The position numbers were made by a program, and so were the translations under genes. DNA of 64,000 nucleotides from Candidatus Omnitrophota bacterium (GTDB lineage Bacteria; Omnitrophota; Gorgyraeia; 2-02-FULL-51-18), in assembly GCA_023247915.1 (NCBI GenBank), contig JAHFFN010000001.1, positions 9,417 to 73,416 on the forward strand, written 5' to 3'. The notes beneath the pieces were generated by a model, which was given only the letters and a program-made list of their open reading frames with translations, was not told the DNA's origin and made no database searches. This document shows, in pieces, positions 9,856 through 58,132 of this stretch. Positions within the stretch are counted from its first letter, which is position 1. Each line of letters begins with the position of its first letter.

Positions 9856-10011
9856 TCAGGTGGCAGCTCGGCTCGCGGCATCGTTGGTTCGCGTTCCCTT
9901 GGCGGTTATTTTGTGAATAGTTCCATAAACCGTCAGTTTTGGGGAAGAATAGCTTTTTTTCTTGGAGGATTCGGGCTTTGTGGAAACGCGATTTTCTTTT
10001 TGTTTTGACAT
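9856..10011 (-). CDS. Lasso peptide precursor (A) gene, 51 aa, not present in the ORF track
   Basis: Manual translation gives MSKQKENRVSTKPESSKKKSYSSPKLTVYGTIHKITAKGTRTNDAASRAAT, with TGA at 9856-9858 and an in-frame TAA two codons upstream of the ATG. The leader carries a YSSPKL motif like paeninodin-type leaders (YSKPSL). A Thr lies near the cleavage site. The predicted core, AKGTRTNDAASRAAT or KGTRTND..., has Asp at position 8 or 7 for macrolactam formation and a Ser/Thr-rich tail. Confidence 0.65.
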   Translation of the reverse strand: MSKQKENRVSTKPESSKKKSYSSPKLTVYGTIHKITAKGTRTNDAASRAAT

Positions 10012-10034
10012 GGGTTAATTATAACAAATCCCTC

Positions 10035-11558
10035 TCAAATATCAACAATATCATCCTGGCGAACACTGAACATCTTTACCACATAGTCGGGACTTTGAGA
10101 TCCGAAGAAAACATGGTTTTTAGCTTGATAAAAGCCTAGCCGGATCAGCCTTTCATCCAGGTCATTGATTGCCTCGGTTTGAACGAGATTCATGGCAATA
10201 AACCACACCCGCGAAAATTTCTGAGTCCCGTGCCTGCCATTAAAATCTCTCATATCCACAAAAGTGGCTTTGGTGGAAAGATTTAATTTTTTTTGATAGT
10301 AGTCCATGATCGAATTTGGTTTCGCGATGGCGTCATTCTCCCCCGCGTGCTCCAAAACATAGCGAAACCCGCCCTCAAAATCGTCCTTGGATTCAATATC
10401 CGCGGGAAGATAAATCGCCCGAAGACTTTCTCTAAACAGCGCCACGCTGAATAAACTTAAAAATAGAAGCAGAAAAGCTCTATTTTTTAAGGTGGTCACA
10501 CTTTTGGCTAGCCATAGAATGATGAAAATTGCCACAAATCCAAAATAGCGGGACTTCAATCGGCTGTGATCCAATATCACGACGATCACAGGAAACGAAA
10601 GAATAGCGATCGCGATGAATTTTTCTTTTAGTTCGCTTTTAAAAAAGCGCCACGCGATCAAGCCCCCGGCGATGGCAAAGCATAAAGCTGAAAAACAAAA
10701 AGACCAGGAAGTTTTAAAATAATGCAGGACATCTTTATTAAAATTAATATCAAAAAACGGCCCTACGAGAGAGCTCCAATAGATGCAAAGTATTTTTCTC
10801 GGTAAAATCCACGGCCGGCTAAACAACATCTCGTCCCGACAAGAGATGGATTCGTTAAAAGGAAAGCAGGTGTTGTAAAAATGATAGAGGCACAACAAAA
10901 GCGCAGGCACGCAAACCACAAATACAACGCCTTGAAACCATAATGTTTTTTTTGGGGTCTGCTTGACCCAAACCATCCATGCATGCGCCCCAGCAATCAC
11001 CCCAAACCAAAACCAAGAAAAATGAGTCGTGTAAATAGCGGCGGCGGCTGTCAGGCCATAAACGATTCCCCACTTAGCAGGTCGCGCGGCGCGTGTCATT
11101 CTTAGAAAAAAGTAAGTCCCCCACGTATAAAAAAGAACCGGTAGTCCATGATTTCTAATTTCATTGGTCAGGTGAATAAAATAAGGTGAGATCGAAACAA
11201 AAAATGCCGCGAATAGGGCGGTTCTTTTCTCGTAGTACTCTTTTGCTAGAAAATAAACCCCAACGATCACTCCGACACCCGCTATCCATGAGGGCAGTCG
11301 AAAAGCAATTTCATTAAAACCAAAAAAACGTATCGATTCGTGCAGTAAAACAAAATAAAGCGGCGGGTGGACGTCCTGAATGCAATAAAAAATTCCCGCT
11401 TTTAAAGGCGCCTTCGCGATAAGAATACTGGCCCATTCATCGCCCCAAAACGCATGACCCCTTAAAAGCATCCAGAGTCTTAGAACAACCCCTATAAAAA
11501 AGAGAATCAAGAACATGGTTTGCTTTTCAACCACAAAGATAAAAGGGTGGCCTGCCAT
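10035..11558 (-). CDS. GT-C family membrane glycosyltransferase (PMT_2/ArnT-like)
   Basis: 507 aa polytopic protein. HPPLYFVLLH...FRLPSWIAGV...ISPYFIHLTNEIRNHGLP is the conserved N-terminal block of the ArnT/PMT-like family. It is paralogous to 15230-16705. Confidence 0.65.
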   Translation of the reverse strand: MAGHPFIFVVEKQTMFLILFFIGVVLRLWMLLRGHAFWGDEWASILIAKAPLKAGIFYCIQDVHPPLYFVLLHESIRFFGFNEIAFRLPSWIAGVGVIVGVYFLAKEYYEKRTALFAAFFVSISPYFIHLTNEIRNHGLPVLFYTWGTYFFLRMTRAARPAKWGIVYGLTAAAAIYTTHFSWFWFGVIAGAHAWMVWVKQTPKKTLWFQGVVFVVCVPALLLCLYHFYNTCFPFNESISCRDEMLFSRPWILPRKILCIYWSSLVGPFFDINFNKDVLHYFKTSWSFCFSALCFAIAGGLIAWRFFKSELKEKFIAIAILSFPVIVVILDHSRLKSRYFGFVAIFIILWLAKSVTTLKNRAFLLLFLSLFSVALFRESLRAIYLPADIESKDDFEGGFRYVLEHAGENDAIAKPNSIMDYYQKKLNLSTKATFVDMRDFNGRHGTQKFSRVWFIAMNLVQTEAINDLDERLIRLGFYQAKNHVFFGSQSPDYVVKMFSVRQDDIVDI

Positions 11559-43520: not shown

Positions 43521-45077
43521 TTAAAAATTAATGGCCACTTCCATGTAAAACAAATCAGCGTTTCTTTTTGTCGTAAAAAATCGTTTCACGACATCGTCGC
43601 CGTAAAAGTGACTGTAATAGGCCATCACCGTCAAGTCCGGATTGACAGCCCATGTCAGGGTCGTGTCCACCATCCTTCCCAATTGTTTCTGACTATTCGA
43701 AGTGCGTGCCGCAAAGTCATCCGCGACATTGTCATGAATCGCGCCCGACCCGAGATACCAGCGATCATTTTTTTCAGAAAGTTCTACCGCGTGAAACTCT
43801 GTTCTCCACGTCAAAAAGTCCTTCGGCTTCAAGATTAAAGAAACAAAAGCATCTTCGGTATTCATCATGTTGTAAAGAATCGAGAATGAATAAAGCCTGG
43901 CGGTCGGCAACATCTGATGAAAGGTTCCGTGTGTCTCGTCCGCGGGATCGTTGTCACCGGAACCTTGATTAAATCCAACGCGCAACCAAGGCGTCCAAGG
44001 CGCTTGAGTGAGTTGATAACCTGTCTCGGCGGCAAACGCATACGCGGACTGTTCTTGTTCGAACCAACTACCGGTTTGATACGCGCCCCACCCGAGAACA
44101 TCCCACACACCAGAGCCCACCGTATAATCCCCCACCACATGCCCGCCAAAAGTGTAAAGATCAATATCACTTTCACGGCCTGCCAAAATAGTGCGCCCTG
44201 TATTATCCAAGCGTACCGTCGTGGCAGCGATGTTGCGGTGATCGTCGTAGTTATAGTAAAAAAACTGTTCTTCCATTCCTGGAATCAGTCTGTCTTTTTT
44301 GATATTGGCTTCCACGGCCATCACGTCAATATCTTGAATCGAACGCTGAGCTCTTTCCTCAAAACCACCCTGAGTCGGGCTAAAGCCGGCGACGCTGATT
44401 TGTGAAAAATCATCTTCACGCGCGACTTTCCACCCGTCAAAAGAACGTCCGTAGTGTGACCATTCGAAACTACCGATCAAGCGGTCGCCAATGCGTTGGG
44501 TTTTAAGCCAATCGATCTTTTTATCCGTGGATTTCATCTCATTGCCACTGGAATAATTAAAACGGCCGACCGTTTCGGTGACTCCACGAAGCCACTTCAC
44601 GTCTCCAAAAACAGGCTCTAAGAGCTGCCGGGTCTGCTTAATCTCAAGATTTAAGTATTTGATAAATTGGCCATGAGAATTACGGTCTCTTGAATTGGAA
44701 AAATAAAGCGAACCTGAGCCGGCTCCGGCGCTCGTCTTCGTAGGTAGATTTGAGAGCTGTGTGTATTGATGCGTGTAATTGACATTAAAAATATCATGCA
44801 CCCAACGCGCGCCGAACCGAAGTTGATTGGCTAAAAATTCGTAATCATTGTCGGTGGTGGACGTAAAATAGTTCCAAGCTTCATAACGGAGCCGATCCCG
44901 TCCAAAAAATGACACATTGCCCCAATCATTCGGCAAGGTCAACCGGAGATCTTTGAGTGTCACAAATCCGGGATCGGTTTTTAACGAAAAACCTGTCTCT
45001 TTTGCCGATGCCACGGATCCCCACAAACACAGGGTGACTGCTATGACTGCGATATTCCATTTATTTATGATTTTCAT
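43521..45077 (-). CDS. Outer-membrane beta-barrel porin (alginate-export/AlgE-like family)
   Basis: 518 aa. Signal peptide, alternating beta-strand pattern, C-terminal aromatic residue (…EVAINF). Confidence 0.45.
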   Translation of the reverse strand: MKIINKWNIAVIAVTLCLWGSVASAKETGFSLKTDPGFVTLKDLRLTLPNDWGNVSFFGRDRLRYEAWNYFTSTTDNDYEFLANQLRFGARWVHDIFNVNYTHQYTQLSNLPTKTSAGAGSGSLYFSNSRDRNSHGQFIKYLNLEIKQTRQLLEPVFGDVKWLRGVTETVGRFNYSSGNEMKSTDKKIDWLKTQRIGDRLIGSFEWSHYGRSFDGWKVAREDDFSQISVAGFSPTQGGFEERAQRSIQDIDVMAVEANIKKDRLIPGMEEQFFYYNYDDHRNIAATTVRLDNTGRTILAGRESDIDLYTFGGHVVGDYTVGSGVWDVLGWGAYQTGSWFEQEQSAYAFAAETGYQLTQAPWTPWLRVGFNQGSGDNDPADETHGTFHQMLPTARLYSFSILYNMMNTEDAFVSLILKPKDFLTWRTEFHAVELSEKNDRWYLGSGAIHDNVADDFAARTSNSQKQLGRMVDTTLTWAVNPDLTVMAYYSHFYGDDVVKRFFTTKRNADLFYMEVAINF

Positions 45078-45142
45078 TGTTTGTTTTCTCCCGTTGTTGT
45101 TTTAAATAAAAGCGTCCATCCTTGGAACGCCTTTTAAACACC

Positions 45143-45162
45143 GGGAAACTTCTTTATTTCCC
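45143..45162 (-). promoter_or_regulatory. Intergenic RNA hairpin GGGAAAU-AAAGAA-GUUUCCC (hexaloop with A1/G4) between nrtD and the porin gene
   Basis: Palindrome gggaaacttctttatttccc at 45143-45162. It lies 14 nt after the nrtD stop, and a second stem plus U-tract (GGCGU...ACGCUUUUAUUU) follows on the minus strand. Confidence 0.45.
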
Positions 45163-45175
45163 TAATTAAAATGAA

Positions 45176-45988
45176 TTAAGCGGCTACCGAATGGTCGCCG
45201 TAACTCTCGCTCTCCAAAAATCCAATGAGTGTTCCCCGATGAACATAATAATCAGGATGCTCAATCACTTCCTGTTTATTACGGGGTCGCTCAAAATTAA
45301 CTTTTAGAATATTACCTACATGCGCGCGTGGCCCACTCGTCATCATGACGACTCTATCTGAAAGATACAGCGCCTCGTCCACGTCGTGAGTCACCATAAG
45401 AGCCGTTATTTTTTCGGTATTCCAAATATCGAGTAAGATTTCTTGGAGATCCGCGCGGGTGAGCGAATCCAGCATGCCGAATGGCTCGTCCAAAAGCAGT
45501 AATTTAGGCTTTAAAGCGAACGCGCGCGCGAGACTGACACGTTGCTTCATTCCGATGGAAAGTTCGGACGCTTTTTTATTCAAACTGTCCCCAAGACCCA
45601 CACGTTCGAGATAATGCTTACAAACCGCCACGCGCTCTTTATGGGAATCGTTTGGCCTCACCTGATCGACACCAATCAATACATTTTGAAGAGCCGTCAT
45701 CCACGGAAAGAGACTGGGGCTCTGAAACACAACGCCGCGGTCAGGACCCGGTTCCTCAATCAGTCGGTTTTGAAGAATCACCCCGCCGCGGGACACCTTA
45801 TTCAACCCCGCCGCCACCATCAACATCGTGGACTTACCGCAACCGGAATGCCCAATGATGGTGATAAATTCACCCTTCGCGATGCGAAGCTCAAACCCCT
45901 CCACGACAGCAATAGGCCCATTGGGCGAAGGATATTCCTTCGTCGTGTCCGTAAAATGAAGAAATGGATTTAGAAGTTCCATGGACAT
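45176..45988 (-). CDS. nrtD: Nitrate/sulfonate/bicarbonate-type ABC transporter ATP-binding subunit (NrtD-like)
   Basis: GHSGCGKST Walker A, LSIGMKQRVSLARA signature. The start is probably M20/M22 (MSMELLNPF). Confidence 0.7.
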   Translation of the reverse strand: MSMELLNPFLHFTDTTKEYPSPNGPIAVVEGFELRIAKGEFITIIGHSGCGKSTMLMVAAGLNKVSRGGVILQNRLIEEPGPDRGVVFQSPSLFPWMTALQNVLIGVDQVRPNDSHKERVAVCKHYLERVGLGDSLNKKASELSIGMKQRVSLARAFALKPKLLLLDEPFGMLDSLTRADLQEILLDIWNTEKITALMVTHDVDEALYLSDRVVMMTSGPRAHVGNILKVNFERPRNKQEVIEHPDYYVHRGTLIGFLESESYGDHSVAA

Positions 45989-49189: not shown

Positions 49190-49296
49190 AACCTACCTCC
49201 CATGGAATCTACTTTCATTTCTTTTTATAAAGAAACCAAATAAAAAAGCATTCACCCGATTTTTCTTCGAGGAACGCCTTCGCCCTAAAACTTTTT

Positions 49297-49316
49297 GGGA
49301 AACGCCTTTATTTCCC
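49297..49316 (-). promoter_or_regulatory. Intergenic RNA hairpin GGGAAAU-AAAGGC-GUUUCCC between nasA and nrtA
   Basis: Near-identical copy of the 45143 motif, about 108 nt upstream of the nrtA start. An AAGGCGTTCC block follows, as at 45143. Confidence 0.45.
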
Positions 49317-49407: not shown

Positions 49408-51642
49408 CTAATGCCTTTTTGGCCGTTCCAGAAGCGGCACTGCGATGGAGCGCTCAACACGCACAGCGGCCTGTTTATAGTTGGGTTCTCTGGAAATGGG
49501 GTCGCAATCGCTTACGGTCAAATTGTTCGCGTTGGCCTCCGCGTAATGGAACGGGATAAAGATTTGCCCGGGAGCGATCGTCTCCGTGACGCGGAGAATG
49601 ACACGTTCGACCACTCCGCGCCTGGATTCCACACGCACGTAGTCGCCATGTTGAAATTTCAGATTCTGAGCATCCCGAGGATTCATTTCCACCCAGGCCT
49701 CGGGAGACAGCCGATTGAGCAGAGGAATCGCGCCTGTTTTAGTCCGTGTATGCCAATGTTCGACCGTTCTGCCGGTATTCAACCAAAAAGGGTAGTCCTT
49801 GTCGGGAACTTCGGACGGCGCTTTCCAATCAATAGGCCAAAGTTTCGCGCGGCCGTCCTCCGTCTCAAATTTTCCATCCGTATAAAGCCTCACGGATTCT
49901 TTAGGGGAACGCGTGCTACCTTCCTTAAACGGCCACTGAATCCCACCATGTTTTTCCAGAAGTTCATACGTGATCCCCGAATAATCACACAGCCGTCCGT
50001 GAGTCACCTTTTTCCATTCCTCAAAAGCGTCGCGCGGGCCTTTCCAATGAGGGTAAATGCTTTCCGACACGCCTAGTTCCTTGGCAATCATGAGAAAAAT
50101 ATCAAAATCAGATTTGGCTTCTCCCGGGGGCTCGACCGCTTTGTTCACCTTACTGACCATGCGCTCGGAGTTGGTGTAAGTGCCTTCTTTCTCCCCCCAA
50201 ACCCCCGCCGGCAACACAAGATCCGCGACTCGGCTGGTTGGAATCGGATGATACCCATCTTGAACCACTAGAAATTCAAGGCGTTCCAAACAATCCAAAA
50301 GATACGCTTGATTAGGAAATGAAACCAGTGGATTGGTCGCGATAATCCAAAGTGCTTTAATTTTTCCGGTCAATACCCCTTCGATAATATCGGGGTAAGC
50401 CATGCCACGGGAGGTGGGAATGATTTCCTCTTGGATGCCCCAAAGCGCCGCGAGCTCTTTACGATGCTCGGGATTTTCAAATTTCCGGTAGCCCGGCAAA
50501 CCGGATGTAAAACCAGCCTCCCGCGTACCCATCGCGTTGCACTGTCCTGTGATTGAAAATGGCGAAGCGCCGACGCGCCCGACATTGCCGGTGATGAGCG
50601 CGAGATTACAAATCGCGTTCACCGTTTCGGCTCCCTGCGCGCTATGATTAACACCCATTGTCCAAGCAATAAAAGGAGCGTTGGCACTGCCGTAAAGAAG
50701 CGCGATTTGACGAATGCGCTCAGGCGTAAGACCCGTGATATCACTCACCCGATCCGGTGTCCAAGATTCCAGATCTTCACGCAATTTTTCAAAACCGTTG
50801 GTATGTTTTTCGATGTAGCCGCGGTTAATTTTTTCTTCCTTAATCAGAATATGCATCATTCCGTTTAATAGAGCGATATCACTTCTGGGTTTGATCGGCA
50901 AATGAATATCGGCCATCATGGCCGTTTTTGTCACGCGGGGATCCACCACAATAAGAACTCGTCTTTTGTTTTTCTCAAGACGATAACAAAGAATGGGGTG
51001 ATTATCCGCGATATTGGCGCCGATCAAAAAAACCAGATCCGCTTTTTCCAGATCTTCATAAGAGCCCGGAGGGCCGTCGCTCCCAAATGACCGTTTGTAC
51101 CCGGACGCGGCGCTGGCCATACAAAGCGTCGTATTTCCATCGTAGTTTTTGGTCTTAAAACCAAGTTGCGCAAGCTTGCCAAGTGTGTAAAATTCCTCCG
51201 TGACTAATTGCCCCGTACCGATGATGCCCAAAGATTCTGGGCCGTATTTGTTCTGAATCGTCTGAAAGCGCCCCACCATCTCACGAATAGCCCAGTCCCA
51301 GCCGACCCGTTGGAATCGCTTATTTATTTTGAGTAAAGGGTATTTGGCGCGATTGGGCGCGTTGATCGCGTCATGTTCACAAAGTCCCTTGGGGCAAAGC
51401 CGCCCTTCGTTGACGGGATGGTTCTGGTTGCCTCGCACACTCACCGCTTTTCCTTTTTTGACGCCAATAAAAAGCCCGCAGCCTACCGAGCAATAACCGC
51501 AAGTGGTGGGAATCCACCGGTCTGGAATTTTGGCTTTGGACATGTAACCAAATTGCTCATCCACGTCATAAGCGTACTTTTCTGTTTGAAGATCAATCCC
51601 TAAGCGGCGGCGTACCGACTGAAAAAATGTTTTTGGATTCAA
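49408..51642 (-). CDS. nasA: Assimilatory nitrate reductase catalytic subunit (molybdopterin oxidoreductase)
   Basis: CGYCSVGCGL N-terminal 4Fe-4S motif, MopB family length, C-terminal molydop_binding domain. No twin-arginine signal. Uses a TTG start overlapping the upstream stop. Confidence 0.85.
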   Translation of the reverse strand: MNPKTFFQSVRRRLGIDLQTEKYAYDVDEQFGYMSKAKIPDRWIPTTCGYCSVGCGLFIGVKKGKAVSVRGNQNHPVNEGRLCPKGLCEHDAINAPNRAKYPLLKINKRFQRVGWDWAIREMVGRFQTIQNKYGPESLGIIGTGQLVTEEFYTLGKLAQLGFKTKNYDGNTTLCMASAASGYKRSFGSDGPPGSYEDLEKADLVFLIGANIADNHPILCYRLEKNKRRVLIVVDPRVTKTAMMADIHLPIKPRSDIALLNGMMHILIKEEKINRGYIEKHTNGFEKLREDLESWTPDRVSDITGLTPERIRQIALLYGSANAPFIAWTMGVNHSAQGAETVNAICNLALITGNVGRVGASPFSITGQCNAMGTREAGFTSGLPGYRKFENPEHRKELAALWGIQEEIIPTSRGMAYPDIIEGVLTGKIKALWIIATNPLVSFPNQAYLLDCLERLEFLVVQDGYHPIPTSRVADLVLPAGVWGEKEGTYTNSERMVSKVNKAVEPPGEAKSDFDIFLMIAKELGVSESIYPHWKGPRDAFEEWKKVTHGRLCDYSGITYELLEKHGGIQWPFKEGSTRSPKESVRLYTDGKFETEDGRAKLWPIDWKAPSEVPDKDYPFWLNTGRTVEHWHTRTKTGAIPLLNRLSPEAWVEMNPRDAQNLKFQHGDYVRVESRRGVVERVILRVTETIAPGQIFIPFHYAEANANNLTVSDCDPISREPNYKQAAVRVERSIAVPLLERPKRH

Positions 51643-53354
51643 TGCTTTCCCCCGCTTTCGGTGAAAAAACCTCCGGGAATGTTTTTGGGCACCACCGTGA
51701 CAAAAAAAAGATATCGTCCTAAAAACTCGCTGGAAAGGGCGATCAAGAAAGAAATTCCGGCAAACACGGCCGTTCCTATTCCCGAAACCGCGTCGCGCGT
51801 CAAAAAGGAGCTTAGGTAAAAAAATGGGAGGATAAAACTATTCAAAGTTAAAAGTCCGATGCGTAAAAGAAAATGAACTCGGAAGCGCCGTGTCATCAGC
51901 AGTGCCGAATCATACAATTCAGGATTTTTCCCTTCATTGACTTGAAAAAGTCGTGCGAAAAGCACCAAGAGCTGAGAAAAACCGGCGACCGCCGAAATAG
52001 CAAGCCAACAAAGAACTGGTCCAAGACTCTCGCGCGTCAGATTCTTTCCCATAAACACCAAATGAAGACCATAAACCACCAAACTAAAAAGCGGCCCCAA
52101 AATAAATCCTGTAAGAAAGAAACGTAAAGGCGTGCGGATAGTGTTCCAGGCGGGTCTGGCTGGAACCAGATAAATTTTAGCGCTGGCAAAAATTCCTGCC
52201 ATGCCAGAAAAAGCGGCGATGCCGCCTATGGATACAAGGATCACTTCTGGAAACTCCAAGTGTAGAAAGGTTTCCGCTAAAAGTAAGGCCGCGTATGCCG
52301 CGCCCGCAAAAGAAAATAGAGAGAAAAATAAAATTTCACGGGAAAGCCACGAGCGCCGCCACATTCGAAGCGCTTTGTAAGCGTAGAGCGGACGCCCCAA
52401 ATGAAAAACAGACGCGGATAGGGCTAGCCCCGTCACCGCCAAAATACCCGACGCGCCAAACACCTGAAATTCTTCCAAAGGTTTTAAAAATCCGACGACA
52501 TGCGCCAAAAGACTTCCGAGCCACAGCGTCATCAGTCCTCCCGCCGCCAGTTGAGTCAGTACCGTCATGACGATCAAGGATGTGTGAGGCTCTTCCGGTT
52601 CAACGCGATGGCGGTTTAAGCGCATGGTATCTTCCGGCATCGATTCTGGAAGTGTGATCCGGGTTGTTGAAATAGTGATGCTTGAATCCGGCATATGGGG
52701 CGCATCCGCGGCCGAATGGTCTTTAAGCCACTCGGCGACATTCACTGTTTCGATACGAATCGCTTTTTCTGGGCAGGCCGCCACGCAGGCCGGCGCCATG
52801 CCATCCGCAAGCCGGCTATAACACATATCACACTTGGTAACAATGCCGCGTTCTTTATTAAATTGGGGAACGCCATAAGCACAATTCCAAGTGCAGTAGC
52901 GGCATCCGATACATTCTTCGGCCTTATGACGAACCACACCCGTTTTCGGATCTTTAAGATAAGCGTCTGTCGGACAACCGGTCAAACAAGCCGGATCGAG
53001 ACAATGATTGCAAGCCATGGACATGTGAAATTTCTTAGCATTAGGATAAATGCCGCCTTCAATCTCGCCGACACGCCGCCAGTTGACCGTCGCGGGATTG
53101 TTGTTCTGTTCATTGCAGGCCACCACGCAACACTGACAACCCACACAACGTGACATATCAAAATGAAAACGGTACTGTTCTCCGTCCGCCAGGGGCTCTG
53201 TCGGAATAAGCGACTCTATTGGCTCTACAACACCCAACACGGTGCCGGTGATTTTATTTCCGCGCGGCGCGTAATAGCCTTCCTTACCCACCCTATTTTT
53301 TAAGGGTAGATTGTATTTATCCATCATTTCAAAGATTAAAGACTCTTCCGGCAT
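51639..53354 (-). CDS. Fused 4x[4Fe-4S] ferredoxin (DmsB/NrfC-like) and polytopic membrane anchor (DmsC/NrfD-like)
   Basis: The N-terminal 200 aa carry four CxxCxxCxxxCP-type clusters. The C-terminal 330 aa have about 8 TM segments. Confidence 0.6.
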   Translation of the reverse strand: MPEESLIFEMMDKYNLPLKNRVGKEGYYAPRGNKITGTVLGVVEPIESLIPTEPLADGEQYRFHFDMSRCVGCQCCVVACNEQNNNPATVNWRRVGEIEGGIYPNAKKFHMSMACNHCLDPACLTGCPTDAYLKDPKTGVVRHKAEECIGCRYCTWNCAYGVPQFNKERGIVTKCDMCYSRLADGMAPACVAACPEKAIRIETVNVAEWLKDHSAADAPHMPDSSITISTTRITLPESMPEDTMRLNRHRVEPEEPHTSLIVMTVLTQLAAGGLMTLWLGSLLAHVVGFLKPLEEFQVFGASGILAVTGLALSASVFHLGRPLYAYKALRMWRRSWLSREILFFSLFSFAGAAYAALLLAETFLHLEFPEVILVSIGGIAAFSGMAGIFASAKIYLVPARPAWNTIRTPLRFFLTGFILGPLFSLVVYGLHLVFMGKNLTRESLGPVLCWLAISAVAGFSQLLVLFARLFQVNEGKNPELYDSALLMTRRFRVHFLLRIGLLTLNSFILPFFYLSSFLTRDAVSGIGTAVFAGISFLIALSSEFLGRYLFFVTVVPKNIPGGFFTESGGKH

Positions 53355-56175: not shown

Positions 56176-56270
56176 AGAGACTTTTTATTGCTTGTCATGA
56201 GCGTTCCTTCTGATTTAAAAAATAAAATCCTTACCATAAACGAGCGATGCTTCTTCGCACCCGTTTAAAA

Positions 56271-56290
56271 TAAGGACGTCTTTATCCTAA
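56271..56290 (-). promoter_or_regulatory. Hairpin AGGAU-AAAGAC-GUCCU plus UUAUUUU between the GAF-ANTAR gene and nirB
   Basis: Same AAAGNN hexaloop closed by U.G as the 45143 and 49297 hairpins, but with a different (covarying) stem. The U-rich tail suggests a terminator/attenuator about 95 nt upstream of nirB. Confidence 0.4.
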
Positions 56291-56307: not shown

Positions 56308-56997
56308 TTACTTTTCCAGCTCAGCCGCCATCAAGATCGCTTCCGCGATTTCTTTCTGGGGTTTGTTCTTATCCATGCTGGCCTTCTGAATAAAGCGATG
56401 GGATTCTTCTTCGCCCATATGGTATCTCTTCATTAAGATCCGTTTTGCGCTATCCAAAGCCTTTTTCGTATTTAACGCTAACCGTGCTTCCGCTTCCTCC
56501 GAAACCAGCCTCCCGTGTTCCACCATGATCGCCGCTTGGTTGGCAATGGTCTGAACCAGCTGCACCTCTTCCTTAGAAAAGGTTTTTTCTTCTTCCGTGT
56601 AACAATTCAACACGCCGATCACTTTATCGGAAAGCATGAGTGGTACCGATAACAAAGAGCATAAACCTTCTTGCTTGGCGATTTCAGGGTAACTGTAAAT
56701 CGCATCCTGAGTCACATCCGCCACCTGAATCGCTTGTTTTTTGACCACCACGCGACCCGAGATGCTCTGCCCCACCTTAATGGGGGGTTTGTCGCGATAA
56801 GCGGCGCTCAAACTTTGAGTGGCTCTAATCACCAACTCTTCTTTATTTTTAGAGAGCAACATTAAAGAACAAATTTTAGACCCGATCAGTTCCGCCGTCA
56901 TCCCAACCACTTGCTGGAGAATGGCATCCAGATCTTGCTTACCTACCAAGGATCGGCTTATCTGATACAGCACTTCTAGCTGACGTTTTTCTTTCAC
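56308..56997 (-). CDS. GAF-ANTAR antitermination regulator (NasT/NasR-like)
   Basis: 229 aa. N-terminal GAF domain and a C-terminal ANTAR helix bundle (ALNTKKALDSAKRILMKRYHMGEEESHRFIQKASMD). Located next to nirB. Confidence 0.7.
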   Translation of the reverse strand: MKEKRQLEVLYQISRSLVGKQDLDAILQQVVGMTAELIGSKICSLMLLSKNKEELVIRATQSLSAAYRDKPPIKVGQSISGRVVVKKQAIQVADVTQDAIYSYPEIAKQEGLCSLLSVPLMLSDKVIGVLNCYTEEEKTFSKEEVQLVQTIANQAAIMVEHGRLVSEEAEARLALNTKKALDSAKRILMKRYHMGEEESHRFIQKASMDKNKPQKEIAEAILMAAELEK

Positions 56998-57284: not shown

Positions 57285-57821
57285 ATGTCAAAACACATCG
57301 TTTCTGTTATTCAGGGTTCTGCGATTTCTTCAAAAATCTATCTGATCCGCGGAAAGCGCATCATGCTCGATTCTGATCTTGCGGAGCTATACAACGTTGG
57401 CACAAAAGTCATGAATCTAGCTGTTCGGAGAAATCTTAAGCGCTTTCCCGATGACTTTATGTTTCAGCTTTCTCAGGAAGAGACCGAATCTTTGAGGTTT
57501 CAAATTGAAACCTCAAAGAAAGGCCGTGGTGGCCGCCGTTATCTTCCCTATGCTTTTACTCAAGAAGGGGTGGCGATGCTTTCGGGTATTTTGAATAGCG
57601 ACCGAGCCATTGAGGCTAATATCCTCATCATGCGTGCCTTCACCAAGCTCCGGGAAATGGCCTCCGTGAACGAACTTATTCGTCAAAAGATAGATGACCT
57701 TGAGCATAAATATGAAAAACACGAAAAGAAATTTAAAATTATTTTTGAGGCGCTTCGAGAACTATTGGAACCAGCAAAACTATCAAAGAAAAAACCTATT
57801 GGATTCCACACGAAATACTAG
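57285..57821 (+). CDS. ORF6N (KilA-N-like) domain protein
   Basis: 178 aa. IRGKRIMLDSDLAELYNVGTKVMNLAVRRNLKRFPDDFMFQL is the ORF6N domain. The C-terminus is a coiled coil. Confidence 0.6.
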   Translation: MSKHIVSVIQGSAISSKIYLIRGKRIMLDSDLAELYNVGTKVMNLAVRRNLKRFPDDFMFQLSQEETESLRFQIETSKKGRGGRRYLPYAFTQEGVAMLSGILNSDRAIEANILIMRAFTKLREMASVNELIRQKIDDLEHKYEKHEKKFKIIFEALRELLEPAKLSKKKPIGFHTKY

Positions 57822-57834
57822 GGGAGAAAAATGT

Positions 57835-58017
57835 GAGCCGGGCGCGGATCGGCGCCCTCCACTACGTAAGTCTTGTCGACTCCGTCGACAAGCTTACTTC
57901 GTTCCGGGTCGGCCATTCGACGTCGTTGATGGATGGCGTAAACTAATTGAGTTGTCTTTGTGGCAACTCAATTAGTTTACGCTTTTATTTGGGCAACGAC
58001 GTCTCTCTTCGATCCGC
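57835..58017 (-). repeat. tRNA-linked structured element, copy C, bounded by a 17-nt direct repeat of the tRNA-Lys 3' end
   Basis: gagccgggcgcggatcg at 57835-57851 is the complement of the tRNA-Lys 3' end CGATCCGCGCCCGGCTC. The inner end reads (minus sense) GAGCCGG-GCGCG-GATCGAAGAGAG and the outer end GGGCGC-CGATC-CGCGC-CCGGCTC. It shares the ACTTCGTT..CGGGTCGGCCA..TTTGTGGCA blocks with copies A and B, plus two extra long hairpins (a 15-bp stem aaactaattgagttg/caactcaattagttt). Confidence 0.55.
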
Positions 58018-58059: not shown

Positions 58060-58132
58060 TGAGCCGGGCGCGGATCGAACGCGCGACACCTTCCTTAAAA
58101 GGGAAGTGCTCTACCAACTGAGCTACCGGCTC
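58060..58132 (-). tRNA. tRNA-Lys (anticodon TTT)
   Basis: GAGCCGG-TA-GCTC..GAGC-A-CTTCC-CTTTTAA-GGAAG-GTGTC-GCGCG-TTCGATC-CGCGC-CCGGCTC-A. Confidence 0.9.

Follow-up and report, generated by a model that had tools for sequence, protein, structure and literature searches.

The RNA hairpin P1, located between nrtD and a porin gene in the 64-kb window (the whole stretch of DNA analysed here), belongs to a covarying hairpin family that accompanies a GAF-ANTAR regulator gene. We propose, from sequence comparison and computed folds, that P1 is a putative regulator-binding hairpin that would act as a translational ON switch for the porin, as one of the three sites of a predicted regulon; we give this reading an even chance of being correct. 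The features of this junction, denoted site 1, and the regulator gene are the following.

45162..45143, minus strand: P1 of site 1, a putative ANTAR-binding hexaloop hairpin (5' arm 45162..45156, hexaloop 45155..45150, 3' arm 45149..45143)
45142..45148, minus strand: anti-Shine-Dalgarno (anti-SD) segment UUUCCCG, consisting of the P1 3' arm and the next G; pairs with CGGGAGA in the minimum-energy fold
45087..45093, minus strand: porin Shine-Dalgarno (SD) region CGGGAGA, the target of the anti-SD segment in the fold and duplex computations
43521..45077, minus strand: porin gene (518 aa, Pfam Alginate_exp, outer-membrane), the proposed regulated gene, within the conserved synteny nrtBCD-porin-moaA
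56308..56997, minus strand: gene of a GAF-ANTAR one-component regulator (229 aa; Pfam GAF 1e-21, ANTAR 2e-15)

The minus-strand RNA 45162..45143 reads GGGAAAU-AAAGAA-GUUUCCC and folds with seven pairs, including the closing U.G pair, at -7.3 kcal/mol. The hexaloop hairpin that the initial annotation had described at 45143-45162 is indeed present with the sequence given there, and its loop AAAGAA has A at position 1 and G at position 4, as in the hexaloops of ANTAR-target RNAs (Ramesh 2012). P1 also conforms to the single hexaloop defined as the minimal site (Walshaw 2022). On the minus strand, site 1 is placed between the nrtD stop codon (UAA, 45178..45176) and the porin ATG (45077..45075). 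The spacing from the nrtD stop to P1 is 14 nt in the window, and P1 starts 85 nt before the porin AUG (52-89 nt across the eight junctions described below). After P1, the minus-strand RNA continues in the order GGUGUUU-AAAAGGCGUUCC-AAGGAU-GGACGCUUUU-AUUUAAAACAACAA-CGGGAGA-AAACAAACA-AUG, where the AUG is the porin start.

The regulator gene is followed, on the minus strand, by site 3, nirB, nirD, a gene encoding a Fer4/DmsC fusion, the gene for a NasA-type nitrate reductase and site 2, and then by nrtA, nrtB, nrtC, nrtD, site 1, the porin gene, moaA, moaC/B, TauE, moeA and moaE. The regulator is thus encoded about 11 kb upstream of site 1, on the same strand. Detection of both Pfam domains in its product confirms the GAF-ANTAR assignment proposed earlier for 56308-56997. 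We identified 2715 homologues of the regulator with E <= 1e-10, and the named closest homologues come from Candidatus Omnitrophica/Omnitrophota MAGs. The ANTAR part aligns with EutV, Rv1626, NasR and AmiR. Where EutV has Tyr164, a residue that stacks on loop G4 (PMC8934654), the regulator has His, as does AmiR.

The gene between nirD and the NasA-type reductase (window 51639-53354, minus strand) encodes a 571-aa fusion of a 4Fe-4S dicluster domain with a DmsC-type membrane anchor. The fusion is conserved in L002, L007, L009, L012, L014, L027 and L052; for an assimilatory enzyme, an electron-transfer partner anchored in the membrane is unusual. Locus L002 carries two paralogous GAF-ANTAR regulators (698-1342 and 10001-10645), one of which precedes nirBD-Fer4/DmsC-nasA and the other nrtABCD-porin-moa. 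The Alginate_exp porin (window 43521-45077, minus strand; L001:4085-5581; L052:6001-7464; L055:2003-3427) is always found together with moa genes and nitrate transporters, either NrtABCD or a NarK-type MFS, and is a candidate nitrate/nitrite-selective outer-membrane channel; P0186 was called as a single 782-aa NrtD-porin ORF. Elsewhere in the window, on the plus strand, a perfect 20-bp hairpin followed by TTTTATTT (57936-57982) is located just past the ORF6N-domain gene (57285-57821). It adjoins a tRNA gene (58060-58132, minus strand) and overlaps the palindrome behind spurious miRNA and CRISPR-DR matches.

Two further copies of P1 had been reported near 49297 and 56271, and both are found, a near-identical one at 49316..49297 and a covarying one at 56288..56273. 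They belong to the following elements.

49238..49316, minus strand: site 2 attenuator before nrtA (P1 49316..49297; P2 49286..49270; terminator 49281..49244; U-run to 49238)
56217..56288, minus strand: site 3 attenuator before nirB (P1 56288..56273; terminator 56277..56227; U-tract 56226..56217)

At site 2, upstream of nrtA, P1 (GGGAAAU-AAAGGC-GUUUCCC) is separated by a 10-nt linker from P2 (AGGGC-GAAGGC-G(U)UCCU). A 15-bp terminator (-16.1 kcal/mol), with UUUUUUAUUU after it, takes its 5' strand from the P2 loop and 3' arm. The same layout recurs in L009, L011, L012, L014 and the narK leader of L001. At site 3, upstream of nirB, the 3' arm GUCCU of P1 (AGGAU-AAAGAC-GUCCU) is the first part of the basal 5' strand in a long terminator (-21.6 kcal/mol). 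An 11-bp basal helix with compensatory changes appears in the RNAalifold consensus of nine orthologous leaders. The second hexaloop hairpin is clear at site 2; its counterpart at site 3, GC-GAAGAA-GC (56258..56249), is located at the terminator apex and has G instead of A as the first loop base. Both sites are genuine attenuators, each of its own design and each with a terminator that excludes hairpin folds, and antitermination fits both.

Downstream of P1, site 1 contains a stem and a U-tract as well.

45108..45134, minus strand: terminator-like hairpin AAAGGCGU(U)CC-AAGGAU-GGACGCUUUU (core 45131..45112; apex hexaloop AAGGAU 45123..45118)
45104..45111, minus strand: U-tract UUUUAUUU, seven U in eight, the first four of which are able to pair with the upstream AAAA

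The initial annotation had pointed to this stem and tract, and they do exist, in a bulged and weak form. The core GGCGU(U)CC-AAGGAU-GGACGC (45131..45112) forms only with one U bulged out, and UUUUAUUU comes next at 45111..45104; the energy of the core is -6.7 kcal/mol, compared to -16.1 kcal/mol at site 2 and -21.6 kcal/mol at site 3. Extension of the core by A:U pairs brings the energy to -11.0 kcal/mol and uses half of the U-tract. The presence of a hairpin with a U-tract could mean that site 1 is a conditional terminator as well, at which the ANTAR protein, by binding P1 and perhaps also the AAGGAU apex, would let transcription continue past nrtD into the porin and moa genes; we consider this unlikely. 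The loop AAGGAU is itself an A1/G4 hexaloop, and the two A1/G4 hairpins of site 1, which have stems of at least three pairs and are 16 nt apart, formally conform to the published motif definition (PMC3369931). Furthermore, P2 is likewise the terminator apex at site 3 and in eight orthologous leaders, and site 1 has AAAGGCGUUCC in common with the overlap of P2 and terminator at site 2, which suggests that it derives from a full attenuator. The folds, however, do not behave as conditional termination would demand. The terminator stem is compatible with P1 as well as with the apex hairpin: the fold with P1 enforced keeps the downstream hairpin intact, so that there is no mutual exclusion between the two, and antitermination accordingly does not fit site 1. 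The overlap with a terminator that characterizes ANTAR-target RNAs is found at sites 2 and 3 and is missing here. Enumeration of all hexaloop hairpins in the site 1 RNA yielded only two A1/G4 candidates, P1 and the 3-bp apex UCC-AAGGAU-GGA, and no 5' arm from which a P2 in competition with the terminator stem could be built; a canonical P2 at this site was rejected on these grounds.

The relatives of the window point in the same direction. When the sequences of the seven other nrtD-porin junctions were read directly, a hairpin followed by a U-tract was found in none of them (0/7), whereas P1 is kept in all seven; a scan for bulge-free consensus terminators missed all three leader terminators of the window and is hence uninformative. 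Thus, with no exclusive fold, a stem of only -6.7 kcal/mol and no U-tract in the relatives, the antitermination checkpoint that had been assigned to 45143-45162 is not supported. The weak hairpin and U-tract probably attenuate read-through beyond nrtD in a leaky manner particular to this lineage; no control of this attenuation by P1 is visible.

What these junctions share is P1 itself. The junction set consists of eight sequences (the window, L002, L044, L046, L048, L049, L050 and L053); no more than four loci came from scanning metagenomes with the porin alignment. A single P1 is kept in all seven of the others, with the loops AACGGU (L002), AAGGAC (L044), AAAGAC (L046), AAUGGG (L048), AAAGGU (L049 and L050) and AAAGGG (L053). 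Thus, A1, A2 and G4 are present in all eight hexaloops, next to porins that are only 63-77% identical. A second hexaloop hairpin occurs at one of the seven other junctions (L002), and P1 is the sole hexaloop hairpin at six of the eight. The motif AAAGGCGUUC, which is present in the window and L002 and, more loosely, in L049, suggests, at the level of sequence, that the junctions descended from a full attenuator from which different parts were lost in different lineages. No clear hexaloop hairpin was seen at the MFS-porin junctions (L052, L055) or at porin genes with different neighbours (L051, L054, L056, L057); these loci were left out of the junction set.

When the RNA is folded without constraints, the P1 3' arm is base-paired to the porin ribosome-binding site in the minimum-energy structure of all eight junctions. 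The fold with P1 enforced is less stable by 1.3-8.3 kcal/mol, and the occupancy of P1 in the free ensemble is 0-32%. The two pairings of the arm are mutually exclusive. The duplexes between arm and ribosome-binding site are the following.

Window: UUUCCCG : CGGGAGA, -11.1 kcal/mol
L048: -15.5 kcal/mol
L049: GUGUUUCCC : GGGGGAACAC, -15.5 kcal/mol
L050: 13 bp, -15.4 kcal/mol
L053: GGUUUCCU : AGGAAACC, -13.0 kcal/mol
L002: UUUUUCCGGU : AUCGGAGGAA, -10.3 kcal/mol
L044: GACGUUCCUU : GAGGAAUGUC, -15.5 kcal/mol
L046: GACGUUCCUU : GAGGAACGUC, -17.3 kcal/mol

In the window, the alternative helix has only seven pairs and is near-isoenergetic with P1 (1.3 kcal/mol apart). Some pairing is expected between a pyrimidine-rich arm and any purine-rich SD. 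The cognate duplexes reach loop and flank bases that are needed neither by the P1 stem nor by likeness to an SD. When computed with a shorter arm segment, the duplexes rank in the top 0.02-2% of random 20-nt windows, that of the window being in the top 2%; the exception is L002 (15%). Arms and sites combined across clades give duplexes of just -4.7 to -8.7 kcal/mol. The native combination of arms and sites is equalled or beaten by 2 of 40,320 permutations (1 of 5,040 without L046), a count that is not a probability because few independent lineages stand behind the eight junctions: L044 hardly differs from L046 in this region, and five of the junctions have a GUUUCC-type arm. The same measure applied to the strong-terminator leaders gave generic values of -3.6 to -8.7 kcal/mol. 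The exception is the narK-porin leader of L001 (-13.0 kcal/mol), which has both a terminator and SD complementarity, a combination that counts in favor of the conditional terminator. Occlusion of the porin ribosome-binding site in the window is not unusual compared to other genes and provides no support by itself. Judging from the comparison of the junctions and the modelled folds, the conserved partner of P1 at the nrtD-porin junction is the porin ribosome-binding site.

These pairings suggest how the proposed ON switch would work. By default, the segment UUUCCCG that includes the P1 3' arm would pair with the porin SD region CGGGAGA and occlude the ribosome-binding site, in a helix enclosing long-range structure with the terminator-like hairpin at its apex. 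In the active state, we infer, an ANTAR dimer bound to the AAAGAA hexaloop would hold P1 closed and capture the anti-SD strand, leaving the ribosome-binding site free and switching porin translation on. The predicted topology is the same as at site 3, with the P1 3' arm as the 5' strand of a basal helix around an apical hairpin, except that the 3' strand of the basal helix at site 1 would be the porin SD region rather than the sequence preceding a U-tract. One hexaloop already makes up a minimal ANTAR target, and sites of this kind should occur wherever polymerase imposes no time constraint (PMC8934654). An observation against an ON switch is that the nrtD reading frame continues through P1 in L044 (3872), L046 (1546) and L048 (2709), where translating ribosomes would disturb the switch; in these three, translational coupling may interact with P1 or contribute at this site.

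Coupling could even be the entire story: P1 might be a decaying remnant of an attenuator that supports no useful binding, and the helix between its arm and the ribosome-binding site might couple porin translation to that of nrtD. The open nrtD frames agree with this explanation, as do the stop codon of nrtD in L048, which overlaps the porin start (CTCATGAGA; called genes 1871-2767 and 2764-4320), and that of L050 (2908), a TAA within the P1 loop. So does the piecemeal loss of attenuator parts, with P2 left in L002 alone and the U-tract in the window alone, and the state of P1 in L048, which contains three G.U pairs and has the lowest model score (18.5 bits). Coupling alone leaves unexplained, however, why the loops retain A1, A2 and G4 at all eight junctions and why the stems covary, a pattern indicative of selection on the loop. 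Moreover, a ribosome terminating at a stop codon 14 nt before P1 would be expected to open the 5' arm and release the anti-SD segment, which would oppose coupling. We therefore consider a mere relic with coupling to be distinctly improbable.

The connection of P1 with the regulator comes from the wider hairpin family. A genome scan with the alignment of regulator homologues yielded 43 loci, and 13 of these carry a hairpin of the same family directly 3' of the regulator stop codon, ahead of nirB or nrtA and followed by a terminator. We aligned 24 homologous hairpins without gaps. In this alignment, 91.7% of the stem cells are paired, compared to 76.3 +/- 1.8 in shuffles and at most 56.5% when the partner is slid, and both sides change in five of the seven stem pairs. 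Loop G4 is invariant (24/24), A1 and A2 each occur in 90% or more of the hairpins, and the closing pair is Y-G in every one, with the loop consensus AANGRN. An 18-base pattern has two matches in the window against 0.13 expected, a number that none of 100 shuffles reached. The covariance model assigns 27.7-28.4 bits (E about 4e-4) to the three window sites; because all three are in the training set, the informative result is the absence of other matches in the 64-kb window, where the next best match scores 17.6 bits (antisense of site 3) and the remainder at most 13.4 bits. In 718 kb of related loci, the matches of at least 18 bits are almost all leaders of nitrogen genes, on the strand of the regulator; they consist of the leaders, their second hairpins and three additional matches. 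The latter (L015:1106, L021:612 and L038:10223), outside the training set, score 20.7-21.4 bits, and the match at L021:612, upstream of the regulator gene itself, could mean autoregulation.

The bare A1/G4 rule was dropped as evidence: generic ANNGNN hexaloop hairpins with stems of at least five pairs number 86 on the two strands of the window, at chance level, and the weight is therefore carried by the specific sequence family. The initial annotation had named, as the observation that would speak against it, dispersal of the motif across the genome at the 3' ends of unrelated genes; no such dispersal was seen in the 64 kb of the window and the 718 kb of related loci. An Rfam search (evalue mode, 38000-64000) gave no match at the three sites and, as the only hit at the gathering score, the tRNA at 58060-58132. 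Hence, it is most improbable that P1 is a generic REP-like or terminator hairpin unrelated to nitrogen regulation: hexaloop hairpins as such are common, but the specific family occurs at only three sites in 64 kb, all within the cluster, recurs in the relatives almost exclusively in nitrogen-gene leaders on the regulator's strand, and matches no Rfam family. The tie originally drawn between an ANTAR-type hexaloop and the adjacent regulator is backed by the protein domains, the association at 13 loci and the covariation of the 24 hairpins. At the sequence level, the predicted link between P1 and the ANTAR regulator is strongly supported.

The signal is a different matter, and the description of P1 as part of a nitrate-specific regulatory RNA is not borne out. 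Among the window gene products examined, no NIT or NasS-type nitrate sensor was found, and the GAF domain of the regulator is most similar to those of PtsP/EI-Ntr. Its closest PDB matches are an uncharacterised GAF protein (3e0y, 5e-15) and the GAF domains of PtsP/EI-Ntr (3trc, 9e-12; 3ci6, 4e-8). [quoted passage not shown] At more distant GAF-ANTAR loci, leaders with a hexaloop and a terminator precede PII-like, NAD-synthetase-like and GltB-like genes, as identified from N-terminal sequence only (L012:3900, L014:8180, L029:13002/15334, L031:13001/15313, L033:12387/14710, L018:10689, L021 and L038). Because of the PtsP/EI-Ntr-like GAF domain and these distant leaders, a nitrogen-status signal appears at least as likely as nitrate, which we regard as a lead rather than a result. 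Taking this one step further, a single GAF-ANTAR sensor might use a single hairpin for three outputs, namely P2/terminator exclusion, P1/terminator exclusion and SD release, in response to nitrogen status (glutamine or 2-oxoglutarate) rather than nitrate. This comprehensive scheme is tentative and, in our view, somewhat more likely to be wrong than right. If it holds, SD release would be the first ANTAR-dependent translational ON switch on a single hexaloop.

A functional parallel to the proposed switch is found in phage Mu, where the Com protein opens the translation initiation region of mom through a protein-controlled anti-anti-SD switch. In both cases, a protein would stabilise one of two exclusive folds and thereby expose the SD; the analogy is strictly functional, given that the protein and RNA families are unrelated.

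Among ANTAR systems, the closest parallels are the antitermination leaders controlled by NasR (nasF of Klebsiella) and NasT (NalA/nirBD of Pseudomonas, Azotobacter and Paracoccus) (PMC3369931, PMC10783516). As in those systems, the ANTAR gene of the window is located beside nitrate/nitrite assimilation genes, and sites 2 and 3 fit well the pattern of hexaloops with required A1 and G4 that are followed by an intrinsic terminator. Unlike NasR, with its NIT domain, and NasT, which combines a REC domain with the partner NasS, the sensor of the window is a GAF domain, and the cluster comes from an Omnitrophota-type MAG. The leaders differ as well: site 1 has no terminator excluded by a hairpin, and the terminator overlap at site 3 involves P1 instead of P2. 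The EutV/eut system of Enterococcus faecalis resembles the present one in the loop, with the Y-G-closed AANGRN similar to the eut core AGCAANGRRGCUY (PMC3369931), in the presence of several sites in one cluster, including internal junctions, and in the single hexaloop as the minimal unit (PMC3369931, PMC8934654). In contrast to the window junction, which pairs with a ribosome-binding site, every eut site has a P2 that overlaps a terminator.

Control of translation initiation by an ANTAR protein has a precedent in the actinobacterial Rv1626/PdtaR regulon (PMC8164766; bioRxiv 10.1101/660928). The actinobacterial hairpins overlap the ribosome-binding site, whereas P1 is positioned 52-89 nt upstream and only its 3' arm is complementary to the site. 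With P1 starting 85 nt before the AUG, site 1 does not fall under the definition of an actinobacterial translational repressor. Furthermore, ANTAR control of translation in actinobacteria is repression (PMC8164766), as opposed to the activation proposed here. A literature search for ANTAR-dependent translational activation found nothing.

ANTAR proteins are widespread, and few have known RNA targets. No GAF-ANTAR regulator had been studied by 2012 (PMC3369931), and the parts of a 2025 review considered here (PMC12591593) name no characterised one. The locus described here provides a predicted regulon for the GAF-ANTAR class in an uncultivated phylum and allows the idea that one hexaloop can serve as a working ANTAR site to be examined directly. 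It also ties a porin of the Alginate_exp family to nitrate uptake and may represent an activating translational mode of ANTAR action, beside the known antitermination and translational repression.
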